Source of the DNA: Candidatus Njordarchaeota archaeon
GTDB lineage: Archaea; Asgardarchaeota; Njordarchaeia; Njordarchaeales; Njordarchaeaceae
Assembly: GCA_029856055.1 (NCBI GenBank)
Contig: JAHQWF010000002.1
Coordinates: 1 to 34,301 of the forward strand
Reading direction: 5' to 3'
Length of the DNA: 34,301 nt
Position numbers and translations under genes: made by a program. Under the pieces are notes generated by a model. The model saw only the letters and a list, made by a program, of their open reading frames with translations, searched no databases and was not told the origin of the DNA. Below are positions 8,158 to 33,107 of this stretch, one piece after another. The number at the start of each line of letters is the position of its first letter. Position 1 is the first letter of the stretch.

Positions 8158-9677
8158 TTATAGGTACTCCCATACACTAGCTTCCTTATAACTCCATACT
8201 ATTGACTTAGTAGTTGTTAATTGATCAATACTATAACCGATGCCTTCTCTACCTACTCCTGATTTTTTAACTCCGCCAAATGAGTAATAACCGATTCCGT
8301 GCCTTGGGTAATCATTTATAAGACACTACCAACCTCTAAATATCTGATAGCTTTTCTTACTTTAGCGTCATCATATCCAAATACACTGGCATCTAAGCCG
8401 TACGGTGTTATATTAGCTATTTCTATAGCTTCATCGCTATTTCTTGCTTTTACTATTAGGGTTAGTGGTCCAAATATATCCTCGTTAATTGCTTTAAGAT
8501 CATGAAGAATTTCTTTTTGAGTTTCGATCAATGTCACTTCATGATAGTTCGCTCTTCTATTTCCTCCAACAAGTATTCTTCCACCTTTAGCGACAGCATC
8601 TTTGATTGCATTCTCGATTTTTATCACTGCTTCCTCCGTTATTAATGGCCCTAGGTCATTTGATTTGTCTCTCGTGTCTCCAAGCTTATATTTCTTTATC
8701 TCTTTTATTAACTTTTCTTTGAATTCATCATAAACTGTTTCTTCAACAGCAATAATTCTTATTGCATCGCATCTCTGTCCTGAAAAACTAACTACTCCTT
8801 TCGCTATTCTCTTCGCTGCTAATTCAATATCTGCATCCGAGAATACTATTGCAGGATCTTTCCCACTTAACTCCATGTGATACGTCTTTATTCCACCTAA
8901 TTCTATTATTTTCTGCCCAACTTCAGTACTCCCAGTGAAGGTTACCGCACTAACCTTTGAGCTTCTAACAATTAAACTAGCATCTCTTCCTGGTACAGGT
9001 AGGACTGCGAATGTTTTTTGGGAAATCCAACCTCTTCTAAAACTTTAGCAAGCATGATAGCTGCTAGAGGAGTTAAAGTTGATGGCTTTAATATGACAGC
9101 ATTTCCTGCTAACATAGCAGGTATTATCTTTGTTGCAGATGTGAATAAGGGATAATTAAATGGAGAAATAGCTAAAACGACACCGAGCGGCTCCTTTTTT
9201 ACGACAGCTTCTGTTTCGAAAGTTTCATGACTCCAGTCTCCAGGAATATATTCACCCATTATCCTTCTGGCATCTAAAACAACTTTTTCTAACCTTTCAA
9301 TAGTAGCTTTAACCTCGCCTTCAGCATTCTTATAGGGTTTCCCAGCATCAAGAATTAATGCTTCTATAAACTCATCTTTATAATCTCTAATTATTTCAGC
9401 AGCTTTCATGAAATACTCTACTCTTTTCTCTCCCGGTAGATTCCTTATCTTCCGTCAAAAGAGACTCTATCAATTGTATCGTTTATTTCATTACTTGATA
9501 ACTTGTGAACACGAGCTATTATATCCCCATTAATAGGGCTGAAATCATTTATTGTTTCACTAGATTTTGACCAAGAACCAGCCAAATAAGCTTTAAACAC
9601 TGGAATACCATCAGAATCGATATCAAAAATGCCCCTAAAAATTCCTTATCTAGAATTTCAACTAATTCGCTATTCAT
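8158..9677 (-). pseudogene. NAD(P)-dependent aldehyde dehydrogenase (GAPN-like) pseudogene with at least four frameshifts
   Basis: My translation recovers a complete ALDH of about 506 aa, but only by switching frame near 9640-9650, 9440-9460, 9012-9022 (an A6/T6 run) and 8313-8320. The segments read MNSELVEILDK / GIFDIDSDGIPVFKAYLAGSWSKSSETINDFSPINGDIIARVHKLS.. / RKIRNLPGEKRVEYFMKAAEII..FNYPL.. / TFAVLPVPGRDASLIV..VTFTGSTEVGQKIIELGG..ELSGKDPAIVF..FSGQRCDAIR.. / [26 protein letters not shown]..stop. Confidence 0.85.
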
Positions 9678-17411: not shown

Positions 17412-17915
17412 TTATAGGAGCTTCTTATCCTTTAGAAGCTTCATTACATCCTGTGGTCTTGATGGGAAGTCCGGTAATTGCTGATACCACACCTTAACTC
17501 CCATCTCAACCATCTTCTTAATTGCCTCAACATCTTCTGGCGAGACGGAAGCGGTCTTAGCTATCTGCGTTCTTCCCTGCCTAAAAGCCATTTGGCCTAG
17601 ATTAACTGAATCTACTTTAGCTCCTTCTTCGATTAATTTTAATGCGTCTACGCAATTCGCAACTAGAATTAGAACTCTCTTGTTATCGTTTTTACCTTGT
17701 TCTTCCTGAATTTTCTTTATTGCTTCTTCAATTGTGTAGACCTCGACGTTTGATCCTGGTGGCGCCAGTGATTTCTGAAGTTGTTTAATCACTGGATTTT
17801 TCGCGACGGCATCATTAGCAACCCAAATCTCATTAGCATTAGCAAGCTTTACCCAAGCAGCAGTGACTTGGCCGTGAACGTATCTATCATCCACTCTCAA
17901 AAGAGCTATCTTCAT
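17412..17915 (-). CDS. PTS mannose/sorbose-family EIIB component
   Basis: 167 aa. MKIALLRVDDRYVHGQVTAAW matches the family signature R-[IV]-D-D-R-x-[IV]-H-G-Q-V, including the phosphorylatable His. Confidence 0.85.
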   Translation of the reverse strand: MKIALLRVDDRYVHGQVTAAWVKLANANEIWVANDAVAKNPVIKQLQKSLAPPGSNVEVYTIEEAIKKIQEEQGKNDNKRVLILVANCVDALKLIEEGAKVDSVNLGQMAFRQGRTQIAKTASVSPEDVEAIKKMVEMGVKVWYQQLPDFPSRPQDVMKLLKDKKLL

Positions 17916-18090
17916 TTAATTCACCGAGCAGTAATTAGCACTCTTTAATCAAATTGTTAAAAAGATATAAAATATTATTCATAAATTTGATCAATGAGAA
18001 TTATTAATGAATCTAATTTAATTTAATTAATCTTATAAACATTATATTTCATGACGATTAATAATCTCTTATATCTATGAGGTAACTCAA

Positions 18091-18987
18091 ATGATTCCTA
18101 GACTCGTTGATGCTCCATGGAGCAAAATAAGGGGATTTAATAAAGATGAATTAATAGAGTCGATTAAACTTAGTGAGGGTAGGACTATAGCCGCGGAAGT
18201 TGTTGTAACGGCTCCCCCGCTCATTGATAAGATCTCTAATGTAGAGTTAGCTGCTGGCTTCGGGGCAGATATAATTATTCTTAATTTCTATGATGTTAAA
18301 ACTAAATTCATTGCAAATATCCCAGAGCAAGTAAAAAGCATTAGTGATCTTCGAGATTTCTTGGGGAGAATTATTGGTGTTAATTTAGAACCGGTTAGAA
18401 AGGATATAGCTGAAAAACTTGGTTATAGTCCTGGAAGACTAGCGACTGTGGAGAATGCTCAAATAGCTGTTGAAGATGGTGCTGATATCTTGATTATTAC
18501 AGCTAATCCGATGGCTCAAGTCTCATTAAAAGACATATTGATGGCTGTTAAGGAAATTAGGGAAAATATGGGAGATAAGGTAATAATTATGGCTGGTAAA
18601 ATGCATTTGGCAGGAGTTTATGCGGAGAGGCTGGACAGAGAAATGATACAGCAGTTTGCTAAGAATGGTGCTGATGGAATAATTATGCCTGCTCCGGGAA
18701 CAATACCTGGAGCTACATTAGAATTCTGCAAAGAAATCGTTGAGAAAGCTCACGAGAATAATCTTATTGTAACATCCTGTATAGGTACATCGCAAGAGGG
18801 TGCTGATGAAGAGACCATCAGAAGGATCGCATTTCTAGGAAAAATGAGTGGTGCCGACATTCATCATATCGGTGATTCGGGTTATAGTACTAGTGTAGCT
18901 CTTCCAGAGAACATAATGGCTTATTCTATAGTTATAAAGGGGAAGAGACATACTTTTAGGAGAATTGCTCAATCTATACTTAGATGA
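18091..18987 (+). CDS. TIM-barrel-like (aldolase/epimerase-type) protein of unknown function within the PTS island
   Basis: 298 aa with alternating beta-alpha pattern and repeated G-A-D strand ends (GFGADIIILNF, DGADILIITAN, NGADGIIMPAPG, SGADIHHIGDSG). No precise family was recognised. Confidence 0.5.
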   Translation: MIPRLVDAPWSKIRGFNKDELIESIKLSEGRTIAAEVVVTAPPLIDKISNVELAAGFGADIIILNFYDVKTKFIANIPEQVKSISDLRDFLGRIIGVNLEPVRKDIAEKLGYSPGRLATVENAQIAVEDGADILIITANPMAQVSLKDILMAVKEIRENMGDKVIIMAGKMHLAGVYAERLDREMIQQFAKNGADGIIMPAPGTIPGATLEFCKEIVEKAHENNLIVTSCIGTSQEGADEETIRRIAFLGKMSGADIHHIGDSGYSTSVALPENIMAYSIVIKGKRHTFRRIAQSILR

Positions 18988-19181
18988 AATATCAAAATTT
19001 TAATGAAAATGTTTAATATTTTTTAAATTTGCTACGCTATAAAGATGTTAAAATATTAAAATCGATTAGTAAGTAATACTAATATTAATACCTTTTTTCA
19101 AATTTAGAAAAATTTTAAAAACTATATATACGAGAATATGTATGAAATATGTAAATGCATTCTAAAAATATTATTTAAAAG

Positions 19182-21017
19182 GTGTATATGCGCATGCAAA
19201 CAAATGAAACCAAGAGCAAATTTCTAACCATAGAGAAACACACAATATTTTTATACGCAGCTGTAATTACTATCGCAGTGTTTCTGCACTTCAAAGGCGT
19301 CCATGCACAGGCAGCAACGACTATATCTCCTGCTCAAGCACTAGCTTTAACAATATTCGCATTTATATGTGGTCTAGACTACATCTGGGTAACGCCAACA
19401 GGTGTATGGAGACCAACGATTGCTGGGACCGTCTCAGGTATAATTCTAGGCAATCCATTACTAGGATTGATAGCTGGATCATTAATTGAGTTCTCGTTCC
19501 TAGGATTATTTACTATAGGTGGTGGAACAGTACCTGAAGCGGCATCGGGAACAATTGTAGCTACAACTCTAGGTGTTATTATTGGCACAGCTCCTGCACC
19601 TGAGGCAGCAGTAGCTCTAGTACCAATAGCAATACCAGTAGCTGCACTAACGATGAATATAGAGATCTTGGTTAGAGCGGGAGATGCGGTATTTACTCAC
19701 TGGGCAGATGGTGAAATAGCTAAAGGTAATTACAAAATAGTAGGATTAATAAACGTAATTGGAGCGATACCTTGGGCTTTGAGCAGAGCGATACCAGTTG
19801 GTGTTTTCGCGTTCCTAGGAGCTACTCCTGAGGTTGCTACAGCTATTAAAAATGCTATTACTTCACCAGCTATTGCCCCATTCTGGAGTGCAATGAGTAT
19901 TGCTGGATGGTGGATGCCTGCTTTAGGTGTTGCATTGTTGCTTAGAATGTTCTATAGAACTGAGTACTTGCCATACTTCCTATGGGGTTTCGCTTTAGTC
20001 GCTTACTTTAACTTATCATTACTGGCAGTCGCTATCTTCTCCACAATCTTAGTTGGTATGATTTATGTAGCTAGGTGGATCATTCAATTCGGTGAATTTA
20101 AGGTCGAGGGAGCTGTTGAGGAAGGACCGAGGGTATTAACTAGAGGTGACCTTGTTAAAGCATTCTGGTTATCATGGTTCATTCAAAGCTCATGGAACTA
20201 CGAGAGAATGATGGGTACTGGTTTCGCTCACGGTATGTTTCCTATTGAGCAGAAATTGAGGAAGACTGATGAAGAATTAAAAGAATGGTTGACAATGCAC
20301 TCCGAGTTCTATAATACAGAGCCACACCTACACAACATTATCCTTGGAATGGTAATCGCCATGGAGGAGAGAGGCGCAGATATAGAGACAATAAGAGCAA
20401 TTAAAACAGCTTTAATGGGACCGTTCGCCGGATTAGGAGACTCTCTAATGTGGTTCACGCTACTACCTATCGCTTTCGCTATAGGAGCTAGCTTAGGTGC
20501 ACAAGGAAACTTCTTAGGTCCAATAATTGCGCTTCTAATATGGATACCTATCTCTTGGGCAGTTAAATTCTATTCTCTAATATATGGATATAAATACGGA
20601 GATCAGTTGGCAAATGTATTGAGAGGAGATGTATTAAAATTCTTTAGAGATGCCATAGCTGCCTTTGCGGTCGCTATGATGGGTGGCATTGGTGCTTCCT
20701 ATGTTACCCCACCAATCTTCGTTCAGGTTACCTTATCTATATATGGAGTAAGCATACAATCAATAATGGATACGATCATTCCAAGATTATTACCATTATT
20801 AATAGTGCTTTATGCCTATTGGATAGTTAAAAGAGGCGTCCCACTGAGTCTAGCAGTGACCTCATTGTTCCTAACTGGTCTCGGTTTGAGCTTATTGAAC
20901 ATCATTGGTCCTCCTAAAGCAGCTTTCCAGTGGCCATCTCCTGAATTTGCAGCTGCTGGTATTATCTTGATCATAATCTCGTTGATCATAGATTTCTTTG
21001 GTGCTCGCGAGAAATAG
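19182..21017 (+). CDS. PTS mannose-family fused EIIC-EIID permease
   Basis: 611 aa. The N-terminal half is EIIC-like (ICGLDY..WRPTIAGTVSGIILGNPLLGLIAGSLIEFSFLG..GG.VPEAASG). The C-terminal half is EIID-like (LTRGDLVKAFWLSWFIQSSWNYERMMGTGFAHGMFP..HSEFYNTEPHL..AMEERG..IKTALMGPFAGLGDSLMW). Confidence 0.88.
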   Translation: MYMRMQTNETKSKFLTIEKHTIFLYAAVITIAVFLHFKGVHAQAATTISPAQALALTIFAFICGLDYIWVTPTGVWRPTIAGTVSGIILGNPLLGLIAGSLIEFSFLGLFTIGGGTVPEAASGTIVATTLGVIIGTAPAPEAAVALVPIAIPVAALTMNIEILVRAGDAVFTHWADGEIAKGNYKIVGLINVIGAIPWALSRAIPVGVFAFLGATPEVATAIKNAITSPAIAPFWSAMSIAGWWMPALGVALLLRMFYRTEYLPYFLWGFALVAYFNLSLLAVAIFSTILVGMIYVARWIIQFGEFKVEGAVEEGPRVLTRGDLVKAFWLSWFIQSSWNYERMMGTGFAHGMFPIEQKLRKTDEELKEWLTMHSEFYNTEPHLHNIILGMVIAMEERGADIETIRAIKTALMGPFAGLGDSLMWFTLLPIAFAIGASLGAQGNFLGPIIALLIWIPISWAVKFYSLIYGYKYGDQLANVLRGDVLKFFRDAIAAFAVAMMGGIGASYVTPPIFVQVTLSIYGVSIQSIMDTIIPRLLPLLIVLYAYWIVKRGVPLSLAVTSLFLTGLGLSLLNIIGPPKAAFQWPSPEFAAAGIILIIISLIIDFFGAREK

Positions 21018-21080
21018 GCATTCTTTAATTTTTTATACATTTTTTATTCTTTTTTCTAAAAAATAAATTGGTTATGTGCA

Positions 21081-21515
21081 ATGATTGGTATAGTAGTTGT
21101 TTCTCATCTCCATCTAGCTGAGGCCCTATTAGAAACTACTAGGATGATTTATGGCAAACCAGAAAGAGTTGTAGCGGTCCCTTTACTTGAAGGTGAGGGT
21201 CTGGAAGAGTTAAAAGACAAGGTGATAAGAGCAATAGATGAGGTAAATGATGGTGATGGGGTTCTAGTTCTGGTAGATCTCTTTGGTGGTACGACAATGA
21301 ATGTTGCAGCATTAATTGCCGCTGAACGAGGAGATATAGAAATAATCTCCGGAGTTAATTTGCCGATGATGCTACAAGTATTGTTCGAGAGAGAAGATAC
21401 AAATAATCTAAGGGAACTAGCTGAGAAAGCCCTTCAAGCTGGCAAAGATGGAGTAATGGATGTTAGAGAGAAAATAGTTGAGAAACTTAAGAAAGCGCGT
21501 GAGGGGAATGTATAG
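21081..21515 (+). CDS. PTS mannose-family EIIA component
   Basis: 144 aa. MIGIVVVSHLHLAEALLETTRMIYG fits the EIIA-Man N-terminus with the active-site His, followed by VLVLVDLFGGT. Confidence 0.8.
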   Translation: MIGIVVVSHLHLAEALLETTRMIYGKPERVVAVPLLEGEGLEELKDKVIRAIDEVNDGDGVLVLVDLFGGTTMNVAALIAAERGDIEIISGVNLPMMLQVLFEREDTNNLRELAEKALQAGKDGVMDVREKIVEKLKKAREGNV

Positions 21516-22224
21516 GCTTATTGCTACAGATGTAGATGGAGTAGTTAAACCTTATTATGACCCAGTACCAAGCGAGTTGAGTGACCTTCTTGCAAAAATA
21601 TCAGAGAAAATAAAGATTGCTTTCTTATCTGGAAGACAAATATCTTGGCTTGATGGATTAGTTAATGGTATGGGGATTCGGCTCGAGAGAACAATTTTGA
21701 TCGGGGAAGAAGGAGCAGTAATATGGTTTCCTGATGAGTATAAATTAGTATACTCACTAAATGAAGAATATTTACAACGTTTCATAAGAGCGAGAGATAG
21801 CATTAAAAGAAAAATTAGTGATTTATTTGGCGATCAAGTGTTTATTCCTGCTACTCATGTGATTTTAACTATAGCTGCTGGTAATAAATTTCATGAAGCT
21901 GATAAATTGATTAAAGAAATTATAAAAACAGAAAATTACAATGACTTAATTAACTTAACTTATCATAAGATGCATAACGTGATTCAAGTATTTCCGAGGG
22001 GAATCGATAAGTATGTTGCTCTAAGAATAGTTCTAGGGAAATTAAATTTAGATGAGAAAGATGTTATAGCTCTTGGTGATGGACTAAATGACATACCTAT
22101 TTTAAGAAAAGCAGGATTTTCAATAGCTATCGGAAGTAACGAAGAAGTAATTAAGTCATCTAAAGTCCATTTCGATGACGGATTAACAGCATTTAAATAC
22201 ATAGTTGAAAATCTACTTCTATAA
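21508..22224 (+). CDS. HAD-superfamily (Cof/IIB-type) sugar-phosphate phosphatase
   Basis: Motif I is IATDVDGVV, motif II is FLSGRQ and motif IV is GDGLNDIPILRKAG. The ATG at 21508 follows GAGGGG and overlaps the EIIA stop by 8 nt; the ORF track begins at 21478. Confidence 0.8.
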   Translation: MYRLIATDVDGVVKPYYDPVPSELSDLLAKISEKIKIAFLSGRQISWLDGLVNGMGIRLERTILIGEEGAVIWFPDEYKLVYSLNEEYLQRFIRARDSIKRKISDLFGDQVFIPATHVILTIAAGNKFHEADKLIKEIIKTENYNDLINLTYHKMHNVIQVFPRGIDKYVALRIVLGKLNLDEKDVIALGDGLNDIPILRKAGFSIAIGSNEEVIKSSKVHFDDGLTAFKYIVENLLL

Positions 22225-22539
22225 CAATTCCTTAACTTTCTCTATCCTTTTTAAATACTGTTCCTCCAACTCATATAATTCTTTCAATAACTTATCTATC
22301 TCAGTATAAACATACATCATCAGTTTTGAGTGCTCTTTAGGTGGCAAGCCATTGCCATACTTAGTTATACCAATTATCTCCCCCAGAGCTCTATTAAACT
22401 GCTTATAAAGCATAGTAAAGCCAACAAGATTATTTTCTTTTAAACTTTTTTTCATCTTATTTAAATACTCTTTTATAGAATTTACTAAAAATCTGAGATC
22501 TATTTCAAATTCTTTTTTATTCCTTGCATCCTCTGGCAT
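22219..22539 (-). CDS. Small all-helical hypothetical protein, divergent from the Argonaute operon
   Basis: 106-aa ORF with a coiled-coil-like C-terminus (LLKELYELEEQYLKRIEKVKELL). No motif was recognised. Confidence 0.45.
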   Translation of the reverse strand: MPEDARNKKEFEIDLRFLVNSIKEYLNKMKKSLKENNLVGFTMLYKQFNRALGEIIGITKYGNGLPPKEHSKLMMYVYTEIDKLLKELYELEEQYLKRIEKVKELL

Positions 22540-22825
22540 ATCTTTTACCCCTAGAAGTATTTATTGAAACTCAAATTTCCCATACAAATATAAATTATGT
22601 TTTTTTAAAAAATTATTTCTGATAATTATAAGAATACGCATAAATTATTATTAATAAAGGACTATAATTTATAGTTTCAGTACTATTTGTTATTTTTTAG
22701 TATATTATTGGAACTTATTCTATATTATAATAATTGAATAGAAATTTGTTTTATTTTGGGATTAAATTTTTAAAATGAACAATGATTAATAATATTTTTG
22801 CCATAACTACTTCTAAATTTTAGGG

Positions 22826-23935
22826 TTGATATTTTTGAACGCGGAAAAATATATTTTACCTGTAATAGGACCTATAAATCTTTCTTACTTAATTCTATAT
22901 TACCAGTCAGTAGAAAATATCTCTGAGTTAAAGAAGAGATTAGAGCACAGGGAAATTGATCCGTCATCTGAGATCCCGAGAATAATTAATAAAGGGATCA
23001 GGAATAATTATTTACAAAAAGGAATTTTCTCCTTCTATCTAGATGACAAAGGGATTATTTGTGTTATGGGCAGAGAATACGTTAATGAAATAAAAGTAAA
23101 TGATTACACAATTTTACTCAGCGATCCTAAACCACTCACACGTGAACTATATTCGCTAGCTTTGAGAAAATTTCTACTTAGTTTCATTTCTTGGAAACTT
23201 GATCAAGACAGGGATTTGAAAATTCGTGTGGGTGATGCTTATTACTTTAAAGAGTCTGTTATTGGGAAGAGTAGAGAAGGCTTGGAATTCATGTTATTAC
23301 ATGGTTTCAGTTTAAGGATTATTTCTCATCTTTCTGGATTCTATATTTATGTTTTAGATAAGTTTCTGCCTAGGATAAAGCCTACTCTGGATAGGATTCT
23401 AAGGATAGATATTTTCAGGGGTACTTATGAGTATTTGAGAGGTGAGTATTATTGGGATGGTTTATTGAAAGAAATGAGCTGTATCACCACTGATGAGTAT
23501 TTTAGGTTTGGTAAACCTTCTTATGCTGGTCGAATTGTGAAAGTTGTTTATAGTGATGTCCCTATTTATCAGGAATTAAGATCATCTATAAAGGATTATT
23601 ATTCTAGAGAGCGTGGAGAAATTAGAAAATTTATTGAGGAGAGGATGCGTGATGATGTCCCCATAGTCCTCACGTACAAAGGGAGGCGGGGAGCCCATTT
23701 ATTATCTTACTTATCTAGTATCCTTTATCTAGCACCCTCAATAATGGAGTTAAGAAGAATAGTGGATGTCTTAGGTTTCAGACAAATAGTGAAGTGGTAT
23801 ATTGATGCGATGAATCCAAATATAGATAGTTACATAGATAGCTTGAACAAATGGGCAAGCAAAATTATGGATATACTTAACCAATTACCTCTCAAACGGA
23901 GAGGCAACATTCTTGAATTAAGTGGGGTGCATTGA
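22826..23935 (+). CDS. Argonaute N-terminal-half protein (N/L1/PAZ-like/L2, APAZ-type partner) encoded separately from MID-PIWI
   Basis: 369 aa with a TTG start. The Ago-like N-terminus (IFLNAEKYILPVIG..) and the segment IKDYYSRERGEIRKFIEERMRDDVPIVLTYKGRRGAHLLSYLSSILYLAPS resemble the PAZ region of archaeal long Argonautes as I recall them. The stop TGA (23933-23935) is one nt from the ATG of the PIWI gene. No TIR, SIR2, Mrr or TM domain was recognised. Confidence 0.6.
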   Translation: MIFLNAEKYILPVIGPINLSYLILYYQSVENISELKKRLEHREIDPSSEIPRIINKGIRNNYLQKGIFSFYLDDKGIICVMGREYVNEIKVNDYTILLSDPKPLTRELYSLALRKFLLSFISWKLDQDRDLKIRVGDAYYFKESVIGKSREGLEFMLLHGFSLRIISHLSGFYIYVLDKFLPRIKPTLDRILRIDIFRGTYEYLRGEYYWDGLLKEMSCITTDEYFRFGKPSYAGRIVKVVYSDVPIYQELRSSIKDYYSRERGEIRKFIEERMRDDVPIVLTYKGRRGAHLLSYLSSILYLAPSIMELRRIVDVLGFRQIVKWYIDAMNPNIDSYIDSLNKWASKIMDILNQLPLKRRGNILELSGVH

Positions 23936-25202
23936 AATGTCACTTAGATTATTCTCTATTAAGAAAGCTAAAACACCTAAAATAGCTTTCGGTGGCGATG
24001 CTGTAAGTGATAGTGTTGTTAACGGTTTAGAGCAATTTGGTCCTTGGGACTTGGGCAAGAGATTATTTAACTCATTACGCTTAATAATTGTCTACCCAGA
24101 GGGACAAGAAAGCATAATGTATGATCTGCTTGAGAATATGATTATCGAGATTTCTCTTTTGAGATTAAGACTGGAGGTTATACTGAAGATCAGTTATAAT
24201 CCTGGGTCGGCAAGTTCTTATGAAGAAACTATTAATAAGATACGGGAGTTCATTAGAAATGAGCCTTTTAGAAAAGACATAGCTATCCTCCAATTAATTC
24301 CAGAAAGGGAGGAAAAACCAGACTCTTTCTATAACTTAATTAAAAGAGAGATCTATTTAGGCTCAGAAACAAATGAGTTATCTGTTCAGGCTCTAATGAT
24401 CCCAAAATGGGTAGAAGCTAGAGATAAGATTGATTACAGTAGAAATTTGTTGCTTTCCATCTATAGTAAAATGGGCGGAATTCCATGGGTATTAAAGAAT
24501 ACGGCTTCACGGCTAATCGAATCAGCCAGCTTTATTGGTTACACTACTATGGAGAAGAAAGATGTACTTTACGTAATATATTCTATCTTTGGATCAAGAG
24601 GTGAATTAATAGTAAACAAGATCTTAAAATACGAGGCAGCGAGCGATGAAGATAAGAAAATGTATTTAGAGAAAGCTTTCAAAGAAATGCTGGAAAATGC
24701 TTATTCAAGCAAGCTTATAGCTTTACATAGGCTTGGTGAAATTAATGAGATTGAGAAAGATATATTATCTAATATTATTAATAATATAAGAGGATATTTA
24801 TTCATAGTTGAATTCCCAATGGATTGGTCTATACCAATTCTTATCAAGTCTAATTATACTCATAGAAATGCAGATCCTGGAACGTGGTTTTATGGTGGAG
24901 TGATAAATAATGTTCCCTACTTCTTTATTAAGCTCAAATCATTTAATAGGAGGCCTAGTATTGTTAGGGAGGCAATTAAATATGGAGTTATCTTGGTGAC
25001 ACCGAGGATACTTGATGAATTCAGTTGGAGCGATATAGCTGACGATATAGCTAATCAGATATATTCACTAAGTAGTTTGCATTGGGGTAATGTAAATGGT
25101 TACTTTGATGTACCAGTAACAATTCATTTCATGAGAAAGATGAGGAACTTTGTAGAGAGAAACATGGTTATACCCGAGTCTAATAGAGCTATATTCATTT
25201 AA
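23922..25202 (+). CDS. ago: Short prokaryotic Argonaute (MID-PIWI), predicted catalytically inactive
   Basis: PIWI hallmark NLLLSIYSKMGGIPWVLKN. The MID 5'-end pocket pattern is FYNLIKREI..SVQALMIPKW (Y-K-Q-K). Catalytic positions read FIGYTT (expected G-x-D-V) and LHRLGE (expected R-D-G). The likely start is the ATG at 23937 (MSLRLF), preceded by GGGGTG; the ORF track starts at the GTG at 23922. Confidence 0.85.
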   Translation: MGCIEMSLRLFSIKKAKTPKIAFGGDAVSDSVVNGLEQFGPWDLGKRLFNSLRLIIVYPEGQESIMYDLLENMIIEISLLRLRLEVILKISYNPGSASSYEETINKIREFIRNEPFRKDIAILQLIPEREEKPDSFYNLIKREIYLGSETNELSVQALMIPKWVEARDKIDYSRNLLLSIYSKMGGIPWVLKNTASRLIESASFIGYTTMEKKDVLYVIYSIFGSRGELIVNKILKYEAASDEDKKMYLEKAFKEMLENAYSSKLIALHRLGEINEIEKDILSNIINNIRGYLFIVEFPMDWSIPILIKSNYTHRNADPGTWFYGGVINNVPYFFIKLKSFNRRPSIVREAIKYGVILVTPRILDEFSWSDIADDIANQIYSLSSLHWGNVNGYFDVPVTIHFMRKMRNFVERNMVIPESNRAIFI

Positions 25203-25219
25203 TTTTTATTTTTTTATTT
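25203..25219 (+). terminator. T-tract terminator candidate directly after the Argonaute gene
   Basis: TTTTTATTTTTTTATTT begins immediately after the TAA stop at 25200-25202. Confidence 0.4.
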
Positions 25220-25251: not shown

Positions 25252-26028
25252 ATGACTGAGGGTCCAACAGCTAGATATAAAGCATGGAAGATATATCTTT
25301 TGCTTAGAGGTAGAGTTGTTAAGGACATAAAGATACGAAGTAGTAAAATTAAGGTTGATCCCAATAAATTAATAGGTAAGAGATTTCTCGGTTTTGATAC
25401 GTTTGGTAAAAACATTATTTTTATTTTTGATGGATACTGTGTGCGCATTCACTTAATGATGTACGGTACAATACATGTTTACAATGAGAGAGAGAAGCTG
25501 AAGAAGCCAGAGAAGTTAATAAGATTGGCTATTGAGTTTGATGATGGGCAAAGAATGATAGTTTATAATGCTCCCATAATAGAGATAGATCACCGTGATA
25601 AATTATATCTACGTATTAAGAAAGATCTGGGTGAGGACCCATTAAGAGTTGATTGGGATATAAATAGAGCTATTAGATTAATAAAAAGAGATTTGGATAA
25701 GAGTATAGGTGAGGTGTTATTAGATCAGAAGGTTATTGCTGGTGTAGGTAATATCTTGAGGAATGAGATACTGTTTAGAGCTCGTATTCATCCCGATAGA
25801 CTTGTTAAGGATCTTAGTGATGATGAAGTTAGGAGGATTGTGGAGATAAGTGCTGATTTGATGCGTGAATGGCTTAGATGTAAGGTTAATGGCGAAAGAA
25901 TAGGGCCTACTATCTTAATTTATGGTAAATCTAAAAAGCCTTGTCCTATCTGTGGAAGACTAATTAAGTTTTATAGGCAGAAACCACATAACAGAAGAAC
26001 TTATGTTTGTGAGACCTGCCAGAAATAG
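25252..26028 (+). CDS. nei: Fpg/Nei-family DNA glycosylase/AP lyase (endonuclease VIII-like) with non-canonical N-terminus
   Basis: 258 aa. The N-terminus is MTEGPTARY (Nei consensus MPEGPE). It keeps the conserved FGKNIIF lysine, the H2TH motif LLDQKVIAGVGNILRNEILFRARIHPD and the C-terminal zinc finger CPICG-x16-CETCQ. Confidence 0.85.
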   Translation: MTEGPTARYKAWKIYLLLRGRVVKDIKIRSSKIKVDPNKLIGKRFLGFDTFGKNIIFIFDGYCVRIHLMMYGTIHVYNEREKLKKPEKLIRLAIEFDDGQRMIVYNAPIIEIDHRDKLYLRIKKDLGEDPLRVDWDINRAIRLIKRDLDKSIGEVLLDQKVIAGVGNILRNEILFRARIHPDRLVKDLSDDEVRRIVEISADLMREWLRCKVNGERIGPTILIYGKSKKPCPICGRLIKFYRQKPHNRRTYVCETCQK

Positions 26029-32333: not shown

Positions 32334-33107
32334 TCAATATATTATTTCTTTAAGCGATACATACTCTTTTGTTGCCTTTAATAGCCAAATATTTCTTTTT
32401 CTTGCTTCTGAGACTAATTCTGGTAATGGCAATATAACATAAAGGACAAGAATGACATTCTTTCGCAGGTAACCTGGATACTTCTCTTTAAGTAATTTAT
32501 ATTTATCTAAGAGCTCATCTAGAATCTTTATTCCACCTCTTAAGCTTGCTTCACCAATCACGCACCAATCTTTATTAGCACCATAAATATTTATCTCTGC
32601 TTCTGGAAGTTTTAGAGTATCAATATCCATGCTTATTCCAGCCTGTTCGAGATGATACTTTATGAAAGATCTAGCTTCTTCCTCAACATCTACAGTAAGT
32701 TTCTCAACAGTCCTCTCAATTCTATTCAACCTAATATTTATCCTCCTGATTTCCTCAAGCATTTTATTAAAGTCCTCCCTCAAGCCCTTAATCTCGTCCC
32801 ATATCTTCGTTTGCTCCTCCCTCAAGCCCTTAATCTCGTCCCATATCTTCGTTTGCTCCTCCCTCAAGCCCTTAATCTCGTCCCATATCTTCGTTTGCTC
32901 CTCCCTAAGCCTAACCTGCTCCTCCCTCAAGCCCTTAATCTCGCTCTCTATTCTGTCCAGTCTTTTAAGCATTTCCTCTATGCCTATTAGACCAGCTACC
33001 ATGTACCTGAACTCTTCGTCTTCCTTTAGCAGCCTTATTATTTCTTTTTTAATACTTGTTGACAAGTCTTTTTCACCTCTTAAATTAGGTTTATTGCCTT
33101 GCATCAA
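32334..33107 (-). CDS. Coiled-coil protein with a 14-aa tandem repeat and a C-terminal restriction-endonuclease-like (apparently degenerate) domain
   Basis: 257 aa. The central (QTKIWDEIKGLREE)x3 is flanked by related heptad-like units. The C-terminal region EAEINIYGANKDWCVIGEASLRG resembles the E-x-D ... E-x-K core of PD-(D/E)xK proteins, but with N and S at the acidic and Lys positions. Confidence 0.6.
   Translation of the reverse strand: MMQGNKPNLRGEKDLSTSIKKEIIRLLKEDEEFRYMVAGLIGIEEMLKRLDRIESEIKGLREEQVRLREEQTKIWDEIKGLREEQTKIWDEIKGLREEQTKIWDEIKGLREDFNKMLEEIRRINIRLNRIERTVEKLTVDVEEEARSFIKYHLEQAGISMDIDTLKLPEAEINIYGANKDWCVIGEASLRGGIKILDELLDKYKLLKEKYPGYLRKNVILVLYVILPLPELVSEARKRNIWLLKATKEYVSLKEIIY
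32773..32898. repeat. Three perfect 42-bp tandem repeats inside the coiled-coil gene
   Basis: The unit TCCTCCCTCAAGCCCTTAATCTCGTCCCATATCTTCGTTTGC occurs at 32773-32814, 32815-32856 and 32857-32898. A degenerate partial copy follows to about 32950. Confidence 0.95.

Follow-up and report, generated by a model that had tools for sequence, protein, structure and literature searches.

The locus and its coupling signals

The window analysed here is the whole 34,301-nucleotide stretch (positions 1 to 34,301, forward strand) of contig JAHQWF010000002.1 from a Candidatus Njordarchaeota archaeon (GenBank assembly GCA_029856055.1), and the subject is a pair of adjacent open reading frames (ORFs), ORF1 and ORF2, that very probably encode the two halves of a split, catalytically inactive prokaryotic Argonaute (pAgo). 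The host of the pair is an Asgard (Njordarchaeales-like) archaeon, not a Sulfolobus-like crenarchaeon. The genes and the signals around them, as read from the sequence, are as follows.

22826 to 23935, forward strand: ORF1, Argonaute N-terminal half (equivalent to N-L1-PAZ-like insert-L2), 369 amino acids from the TTG at 22826 or 366 amino acids from the TTG at 22835
23937 to 25202, forward strand: ORF2, MID-PIWI Argonaute half, predicted to be catalytically inactive, 421 amino acids
23924 to 23929, forward strand: Shine-Dalgarno-like GGGGTG inside the 3' end of ORF1, 7 nucleotides before the ORF2 ATG
22540 to 22825, no strand: AT-rich intergenic region of 286 bp (about 20% GC) between a divergent 106-amino-acid gene and ORF1
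25203 to 25219, forward strand: T-rich tract TTTTTATTTTTTTATTT directly after the ORF2 stop

The junction of the two genes reads CAT TGA A ATG, with the ORF1 stop at 23933-23935, the ORF2 ATG at 23937 and one nucleotide between them. Reading of the sequence confirmed the ORF coordinates and this junction as the first-pass annotation had given them, together with the 286-bp intergenic region and the divergent gene beyond it. At the orthologous junctions of three related loci (L001, L002, and L003) the gap is 1-9 nucleotides and GAGGTGA or GGAGGGTGA occupies the equivalent site; the single-nucleotide gap and the conserved Shine-Dalgarno-like motif indicate that the two genes are likely to be translationally coupled. 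The TTG at 22835 is probably the start of ORF1 in preference to that at 22826, because the public gene call is 366 amino acids long and the frame of the L003 orthologue opens with the equivalent TTG-AAY (TTG-AAT). TATA-like A/T boxes lie about 25-45 nucleotides upstream of the TTG starts, and the kilobase containing them (22001-23000, GC 0.269) is the most AT-rich of the window; the region from 22540 to 22825 is presumed to be the promoter region of the Argonaute operon. Archaeal transcription terminates at oligo-T tracts, and TTTTTATTTTTTTATTT is a probable termination signal closing the two-gene operon before the next gene.

The two Argonaute halves

ORF2 is a PIWI protein, as had been proposed. 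It matches the PADLOC pAgo model PDLC02436 (E-value 1.6e-32, spanning residues 9-408 of 421) and Pfam Piwi (2.8e-5 over 121-409, below the gathering score), and a profile of four orthologues matches the long-B Argonautes EcAgo (1e-9), AfAgo (1e-6), and RsAgo (5e-5) in the PDB, as well as the GsSir2-associated Argonaute and KmAgo. EcAgo is a long-B BPAN Argonaute (PMC13535254). The motifs quoted for ORF2 in the first-pass annotation (YSKMGGIPWVLKN, FYNLIKREI..SVQALMIPKW, FIGYTT, and LHRLGE) are all present. Alignment to CbAgo places its catalytic D541 opposite T203 and its D611 opposite L266, and alignment to the closest relatives places their GYDIS, H(R/K)DG, and AHK opposite GYTT, HRLG, and MRK of the window. 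The first, third, and fourth catalytic columns of ORF2 are therefore T203, L266, and R400, compared with D/D/H in relatives (P0010, P0011, P0014-P0019, and P0021; P numbers denote Argonaute proteins and L numbers loci); the other two lineages of the window clade, the group formed by the pair and its closest orthologues, have S/Y/R and K/N/S. Placement of the glutamate-finger column of the DEDX tetrad is unreliable in the alignment. Because three of the four catalytic residues are replaced, ORF2 is predicted to be unable to slice; the loss of both aspartates, originally placed by eye, thus holds in alignment, and no complete DEDX tetrad is found.

The 5'-phosphate pocket of the MID domain is composed of Y132, K136, Q151, and K157. 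Y132, Q151, and K157 are invariant across the orthologues, and K136 is lysine, or arginine in one lineage (L003). A YK-type MID domain marks long pAgos and an HK-type MID domain marks short pAgos (Ryazansky et al. 2018, PMC6299218), so that ORF2, with Y-K-Q-K, has the long type. About 140 columns of ORF2 are invariant, including the guide-binding pocket and a GGxPW motif.

The sequence of ORF1 is far less telling. ORF1 matches no family in Pfam, PADLOC, or NCBIfam at E-values up to 1, and nothing in the PDB is matched by ORF1 in phmmer or by two profiles of the ORF1 family. An AlphaFold 2 model built on five orthologues has a predicted local distance difference test (pLDDT) score of 70, with confident regions at residues 10-185 and 320-355 and with values under 50 across most of 190-240 and 285-317. 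A Foldseek search of this model against the PDB gives 46 matches at E-values of 1e-3 or less, and each of the top 50 matches listed is either the N-terminal lobe of an Argonaute or PIWI protein or the SPARSA APAZ chain (probability about 1.0, E-values 7e-6 to 1e-3), including Drosophila Piwi (7e-6), TtAgo, KmAgo, MpAgo, Siwi, AGO1/10, and RsAgo. The Argonaute N-terminal folds account for ORF1 in full.

The relationship between the halves is clearest from P0015, a single-chain Argonaute of 814 amino acids. Residues 184-364 of ORF1 align to its residues 176-360 (E-value 7e-12) and residues 9-401 of ORF2 to its residues 381-793 (3e-25); because they align in this order, ORF1 and ORF2 are, by these alignments, collinear with one uninterrupted Argonaute of the same clade. 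In addition, the sister pAgos that consist of MID-PIWI only have upstream genes of 300-383 amino acids that are homologous to ORF1 (3e-27, 8e-23, 1e-11, and 7e-4 by blastp; 5e-65 and 1e-6 by hidden Markov model (HMM)). ORF1 is the N-L1-(PAZ-like insert)-L2 lobe and ORF2 the MID-PIWI lobe. The proposal of a long Argonaute divided between L2 and MID is borne out by the Foldseek matches to Argonaute N-terminal halves, by the collinearity with P0015, and by the conservation of the split, with the N-L1-L2 lobe encoded by a separate upstream gene.

The PAZ domain is another matter. A conserved insert of about 110 amino acids (approximately 186-305) separates the L1 sheet of ORF1 from its L2 helices, at the position of PAZ, and the block T..EY..GP..AG.I....Y...I..YY..E...FI....PI(V/I)....YL(S/A)S.L.L.P within it is common to the single-chain relatives. 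The longest Foldseek alignments of the ORF1 model (405-427 columns) are to N-PAZ lobes of the PIWI clade, and their length suggests that the insert of the predicted structure, where model confidence is mixed, is covered by such lobes. Pfam PAZ has no match in ORF1, a broader profile of the N-terminal half matches no Argonaute in the PDB, and an hhalign comparison of the ORF1 family with the PAZ domain of human AGO2, made with an approximate query sequence, gives a probability of 0.1. The insert is therefore PAZ-like by position only, its identity as PAZ being unproven: of the two labels first given to ORF1, the Argonaute-like N-terminus is upheld by Foldseek, and the PAZ label for IKDYYS..PIVLTYKG..SILYLAPS is not established by Pfam, the PDB profile, or hhalign. 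A further suggestion, that ORF1 holds a cryptic PD-(D/E)xK nuclease site, is ruled out. Residues 72-90 contain the D-x14-E-x-K pattern on which it was based, but its residues vary among orthologues of 46-56% identity (PN, PD, QE, or EQ in place of DD, and N, T, N, or E in place of K90), and there is no match to a nuclease family.

The split is not peculiar to the window. Every member of the clade has the pair in two genes (the window, L001, L002, L006, and L003/L004/L005/L007; protein identity 34-56%), and none has a single uninterrupted gene. L001 is from a Joint Genome Institute hot-spring metagenome, L006 from a Promethearchaeati/Asgard metagenome-assembled genome, and L003/L004/L005/L007 from a Njordarchaeota metagenome-assembled genome. 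Neither ORF is broken by a frameshift or a stop in any of five diverged lineages. Codon differences between near-identical copies number 11 synonymous to 5 non-synonymous in the pAgo gene and 1 to 0 in ORF1; these small numbers indicate that the pair is likely to be under purifying selection. A sequencing artefact or a recent pseudogene is excluded, because the intact split is kept across the diverged clade and synonymous changes are in excess. The family is tiny, with 5 ORF1 homologues among 5.8 billion protein clusters.

Relatives and neighbouring genes

A word-indexed homologue search with the pAgo profile returned 3 proteins, and an exhaustive HMM search of representatives was needed for the sister clades. 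In that search the next relatives beyond the window clade are P0009-P0017 (E-values 1e-57 to 1e-37). P0009-P0013 and P0016-P0018 have MID-PIWI only (420-444 amino acids), and P0014 (747 amino acids) and P0015 are single-chain. Most sister members have the identical split point, with overlapping or coupled genes. The PADLOC label 'PprPIWI' matches the single-chain relatives over their full length, and was not traced in the literature.

In all of the seven closest sister loci examined, a small DUF5615/PIN-like gene (117-134 amino acids) adjoins the pAgo gene. Pfam matches to DUF5615 are weak (1.4e-5 at best, with several below the gathering score), a custom HMM gives 2.5e-39, and the proteins have conserved (I/V)L(A/V/I)DE and D(A/G)I(I/V)T(E/S)D motifs. 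These genes are found at the following positions.

L040 6176-6529, L042 2984-3340, L044 8617-8976, and L050 5927-6286: DUF5615/PIN-like genes overlapping the 3' end of split pAgo genes
L047 5274-5627 and L048 5589-5993: DUF5615/PIN-like genes directly upstream of the single-chain P0015 and P0014, respectively
L045 2934-3833, reverse strand: DUF5615/PIN-like N-terminus of a divergent protein of 299 amino acids

Most sister pAgos retain D/D/H, and P0012 (G/D/N) and P0013 (G/L/K) are independently inactivated and keep the DUF5615 gene; it thus accompanies split or single-chain, active or inactive pAgos alike. No paper naming DUF5615 together with Argonaute was found in the literature searched, and the association may be an undescribed pAgo-associated nuclease module. 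L049 (752-6099) has a more distant split pAgo, with an N-terminal half of 318 amino acids and the MID-PIWI protein P0018 (D/D/H), followed on the same strand by a 1033-amino-acid protein with RVT_1 and RNase H domains, which makes this an Argonaute-reverse transcriptase neighbourhood. In L042 (3488-9617), P0010 is in a defence-island-like context (HEPN_RiboL-PSP, HEPN_Swt1, GIY-YIG, and a MazE-like gene), compared with the metabolic context of the window.

A rough neighbour-joining tree, built without labelled long-A, long-B, or short references, places the window clade as sister to the DUF5615 group, and its single-chain outgroups have acidic first and third catalytic residues (D/D/H, D/D/E, D/E/D, or D/D/D). 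The best matches of the ORF2 profile among solved structures are long-B (EcAgo, AfAgo, and RsAgo); the nearest relatives in the exhaustive search, with D/D/H intact, form a separate Asgard-associated group. The most parsimonious history would be an active single-chain ancestor that became split, after which the window clade lost both catalysis and the DUF5615 partner.

No substitute for that partner is evident. With 10-34 kb of sequence per locus, the custom DUF5615 HMM has no match in six-frame translations of the window, L001-L003, L006, or L008. TIR, SIR2, Mrr, DUF4365, and DREN are absent from ORF1 and ORF2 in Pfam, PADLOC, and NCBIfam at E-values up to 1; no TIR, SIR2, Mrr, DUF4365, HEPN, or membrane effector is found in either ORF or in the conserved neighbours; and there is no downstream effector of the split long-B type in the window, L001-L003, or L006. 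The flanks of L001-L003 have no transmembrane partner conserved beside the pair, and PADLOC reports nothing in the window besides the pAgo. The absence of a recognisable effector, first noted by eye, is therefore reproduced by family scans of the window and of L001-L003. Other genes and features of the window are as follows.

25252 to 26028, forward strand: NEIL3-like Fpg/Nei DNA glycosylase (H2TH 2.5e-19; best PDB matches mammalian NEIL3, 3e-22)
22219 to 22539, reverse strand: divergent all-helical protein of 106 amino acids with no family match in Pfam, PADLOC, or NCBIfam
5 to 276: CRISPR array with four copies of a 37-nucleotide repeat (GTTTCAAGAATAAGTCTCCCATAAAGGGAATTGAAAG) and a period of about 76 nucleotides

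The glycosylase, abbreviated here to Nei, is the sole neighbour common to both subclades. In the window, L001, L002, and L006 it follows the pair directly on the same strand, and in L003 it is two genes away, about 1.5 kb upstream on the opposite strand. A metagenome scan returned 32 Nei loci, none of which has ORF1 or a pAgo apart from L008, where the L001-type locus is met again at the end of a contig. In at least 25 metagenome loci a Nei homologue (43-62% identity) has no ORF1 or pAgo beside it; among these, L009 and L010 have a Nei 62% identical to that of the window, in 8-kb flanks without the pair, compared with 57% for the Nei of L003. Conservation of Nei is 58-67% versus 34-56% for the pAgo pair. 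Nei is probably a lineage gene beside the pair and not a dedicated effector, a role ruled out as the leading explanation by the many Nei loci without the pair. Its N-terminus in the window is MTEGP, and Thr2 is invariant in five orthologues, at a position where Fpg/Nei proteins have proline and NEIL3 has valine. Metagenomes from hot springs and hydrothermal sites contain the gene widely (32 loci), and its product may be a NEIL3-like enzyme of Asgard archaea.

The divergent 106-amino-acid gene has an orthologue only in L002 (50% identity). L003 does not have it, and in L001 an insertion sequence with a DDE_Tnp_1 transposase (214-1116) is directly upstream of the ORF1 orthologue in its place; the upstream neighbour is therefore dispensable. 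As a partner of the pair the helical protein is ruled out, being limited to a syntenic subset. The other neighbours in the window are metabolic or housekeeping genes: phosphotransferase system (PTS) components, a HAD hydrolase, DUF362, a Pst phosphate transporter, and aldehyde:ferredoxin oxidoreductases. The CRISPR array that had been cited as a further defence locus is confirmed at 5-276, and no cas genes are found within the window.

Elsewhere in the window, a mannose/sorbose-type PTS spans 17412-21515 (EIIB 17412-17915, fused EIIC/EIID 19182-21017, and EIIA 21081-21515); PTS systems are uncommon in archaea. An aldehyde dehydrogenase at 8316-9409 on the reverse strand is found as two ORFs of 145 amino acids (Pfam positions 59-184) and 186 amino acids (Pfam positions 234-420); the probable cause is a frameshift, a disruption of the gene, or an error in sequencing. 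A perfect 42-nucleotide tandem repeat at 32773-32911 (3.3 copies, 98% matches) is within an ORF at 32334-33107 on the reverse strand that encodes a coiled-coil, SMC/Rad50-like protein of 257 amino acids.

Mode of action and known systems

The best explanation of the pair is a slicer-dead split Argonaute that carries out guide-directed binding without a neighbouring effector (probability about 0.6). By analogy with AfAgo/AfAgo-N and SiAgo/Aga1, ORF1 and ORF2 would assemble as a heterodimer equivalent to a long pAgo. The heterodimer would load short 5'-phosphorylated guides through the Y-K-Q-K pocket and bind complementary nucleic acid of an invader. The target would be bound and not cut, and its stable occupancy would block transcription or replication, as is proposed for the inactive RsAgo; if the target is degraded at all, this would be the work of host nucleases whose genes lie elsewhere. 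An output by binding only appears the most likely because the catalytic site and the DUF5615 gene have both been lost and no other effector is conserved nearby. The binder-only mechanism itself, which is drawn from analogy, has a little less than an even chance of being correct.

Several observations weigh against this explanation. A random neighbour would not be expected close to the pair in both subclades, as Nei is. A fused ORF1+ORF2 chain modelled with AlphaFold is unusable (pLDDT 56, predicted template modelling score 0.36). Most characterised inactive pAgos work through effectors (PMC10620215, PMC11788926), and an effector-less binder would belong to a minority. Finally, an effector could lie beyond the 10-34 kb available for each locus.

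If an effector is encoded at a distance, then the pair may be the sensor of an abortive-infection system whose toxic component, for example a DUF5615/PIN-like nuclease, acts in trans. The presence of such a gene beside the pAgo in all seven sister loci, including those of the inactive P0012 and P0013, is consistent with this, as is the reliance of most characterised inactive pAgos on effectors; but defence effectors almost always adjoin their sensor, no DUF5615-like ORF is found around five independent loci of the clade, and PADLOC finds the pAgo alone, which together make a trans-acting effector unlikely. A functional link to Nei would instead have the pair deliver or stimulate a glycosylase/apurinic-apyrimidinic (AP) lyase on invader DNA, or take part in DNA repair. 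Nei is the one gene near the pair in both subclades, where all other neighbours differ, and the estimated chance of the two falling within 3 kb of each other, for a genome size of a few Mb, is well under 1%. Against this, Nei occurs in at least 25 loci without the pair, L009 and L010 being closer to the window than L003 is; it is more conserved than the pair, as a housekeeping gene would be; an oligo-T tract separates it from ORF2; its orientation and spacing differ in L003; and no Fpg/Nei (H2TH) gene is beside a pAgo in the sister-clade loci. Such a link is improbable.

The loss of both the catalytic residues and the DUF5615 partner relative to the sister clades, the very small size of the family, and the position of the genes amid metabolic genes with no defence island would also be expected of a relic, that is, an active split pAgo that has become non-functional or is drifting. 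Intact ORFs in five diverged lineages, the invariant columns of ORF2, the ratios of synonymous to non-synonymous changes (11:5 for the pAgo and 1:0 for ORF1), and the conserved coupling signals argue otherwise, and a relic is decidedly improbable. The pair could also be a short-pAgo system of the classical kind, with ORF1 as an APAZ protein whose N-terminus holds a cryptic PD-(D/E)xK nuclease, since the ORF1 model matches a SIR2-APAZ chain (8in8_B, 2.7e-4) and the D-x14-E-x-K pattern is present. This is extremely improbable: close orthologues differ at the D, E, and K positions, there is no match to a nuclease family, the MID pocket is YK and not HK, and the N-terminal region of ORF1 is modelled as an Argonaute N domain. 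The pair does not have the fusion of APAZ to TIR, SIR2, or a nuclease that defines SPARTA, SPARSA, SPARDA, and the Mrr/DUF4365-APAZ systems, and the original reading that it is not a short pAgo with an APAZ effector stands, given the YK-type MID and the absence of any effector domain.

If guide-directed binding without an effector is the function of the pair, then it would be comparable to the slicer-independent repression by eukaryotic AGO and PIWI proteins, in the closest archaeal relatives of eukaryotes. Since the slicer and the DUF5615 gene have been lost and purifying selection appears to continue, the clade would be a natural test case of an Argonaute acting by binding alone. The bolder form of this idea, effector-free, binding-only silencing directed by guides in Asgard archaea that perhaps hands targets to the adjacent NEIL3-like glycosylase/AP lyase, is quite unlikely, and the handover, if true, would add an effector class never reported for Argonautes. 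The relatives point to a wider uncharacterised Asgard pAgo-DUF5615 module, and together they form a stepwise series (single-chain active, split active, split and dead with DUF5615, split and dead without it) that bears on how Argonaute systems are rewired. The practical value is modest at present.

Among known systems, the nearest in architecture is AfAgo/AfAgo-N (fAfAgo), the characterised heterodimer of a split long-B pAgo, and splitting has arisen several times independently (Manakova et al. 2024, PMC10954474). As in the window, an inactive MID-PIWI gene is directly downstream of a separate N-lobe gene in an archaeal host, the two products sum to a long pAgo, and AfAgo is among the best PDB matches of the ORF2 profile. 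AfAgo-N lacks PAZ entirely, however, whereas ORF1 has the additional insert of about 110 amino acids between L1 and L2. An effector is conserved downstream of the split long-B pAgos (an alpha-helical domain in fusion with a transmembrane segment, TIR, HEPN, or PD-(D/E)xK, or a Sir2-like protein), whereas the gene downstream of the window pair is a Nei glycosylase of housekeeping type. The nearest relatives of the window clade also have an intact D..D..H, and the clade is not clearly inside long-B.

The SiAgo-SiAga1-SiAga2 system of Sulfolobus islandicus, of which the SiAgo-Aga1 heterodimer has been characterised (bioRxiv 10.1101/2021.12.09.471704; Dai et al. 2025, PMC11788926), likewise combines an archaeal inactive MID-PIWI protein with a separate partner that has no detectable sequence family. 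Aga1 is structurally N-L1-L2/APAZ-like and completes the nucleic-acid channel, and the likeness of ORF1 to it is a structural analogy; in sequence, ORF1 is homologous to the N-terminal half of the single-chain Argonautes of its own clade and not to Aga1. The MID motif is H-K in SiAgo and Y-K in ORF2, SiAgo has the membrane effector Aga2 and the window pair has no Aga2-like gene, and the ORF2 profile matches no PDB chain identifiable as SiAgo at E-values up to 10 (8ZNJ and 9LGW are not listed). In both known split systems an inactive sensor is paired with a toxic effector, and in this the window clade differs.

RsAgo, the long-B Argonaute of Rhodobacter sphaeroides, resembles the pair in being catalytically dead, in its YK-type MID, and in having no dedicated effector, and its chains are matched by both the ORF2 profile and the ORF1 model. 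It reportedly works through guide-directed binding (Olovnikov et al. 2013). RsAgo is bacterial and consists of one chain, whereas the pair is split and Asgard-archaeal, and the mechanism of the pair is proposed by analogy. The sister clade P0009-P0017 shares both the MID-PIWI family and the N-half family with the pair, but mostly has D/D/H together with the DUF5615/PIN-like gene, and the window clade has neither. Many deep-branching pAgo clades are present in Asgard genomes, some with long and short pAgos mixed, and the word 'split' does not appear in the paper describing them (PMC11217426). Split pAgos and inactive stand-alone pAgos are thus already known, so that the architecture is not unprecedented and the novelty first claimed for it falls to the split long-B pAgos and SiAgo-Aga1; the effector-less combination stands, and the window clade is set apart by its D/D/H-intact relatives, the insert at the PAZ position, the lost DUF5615 neighbour, and the lack of an effector.

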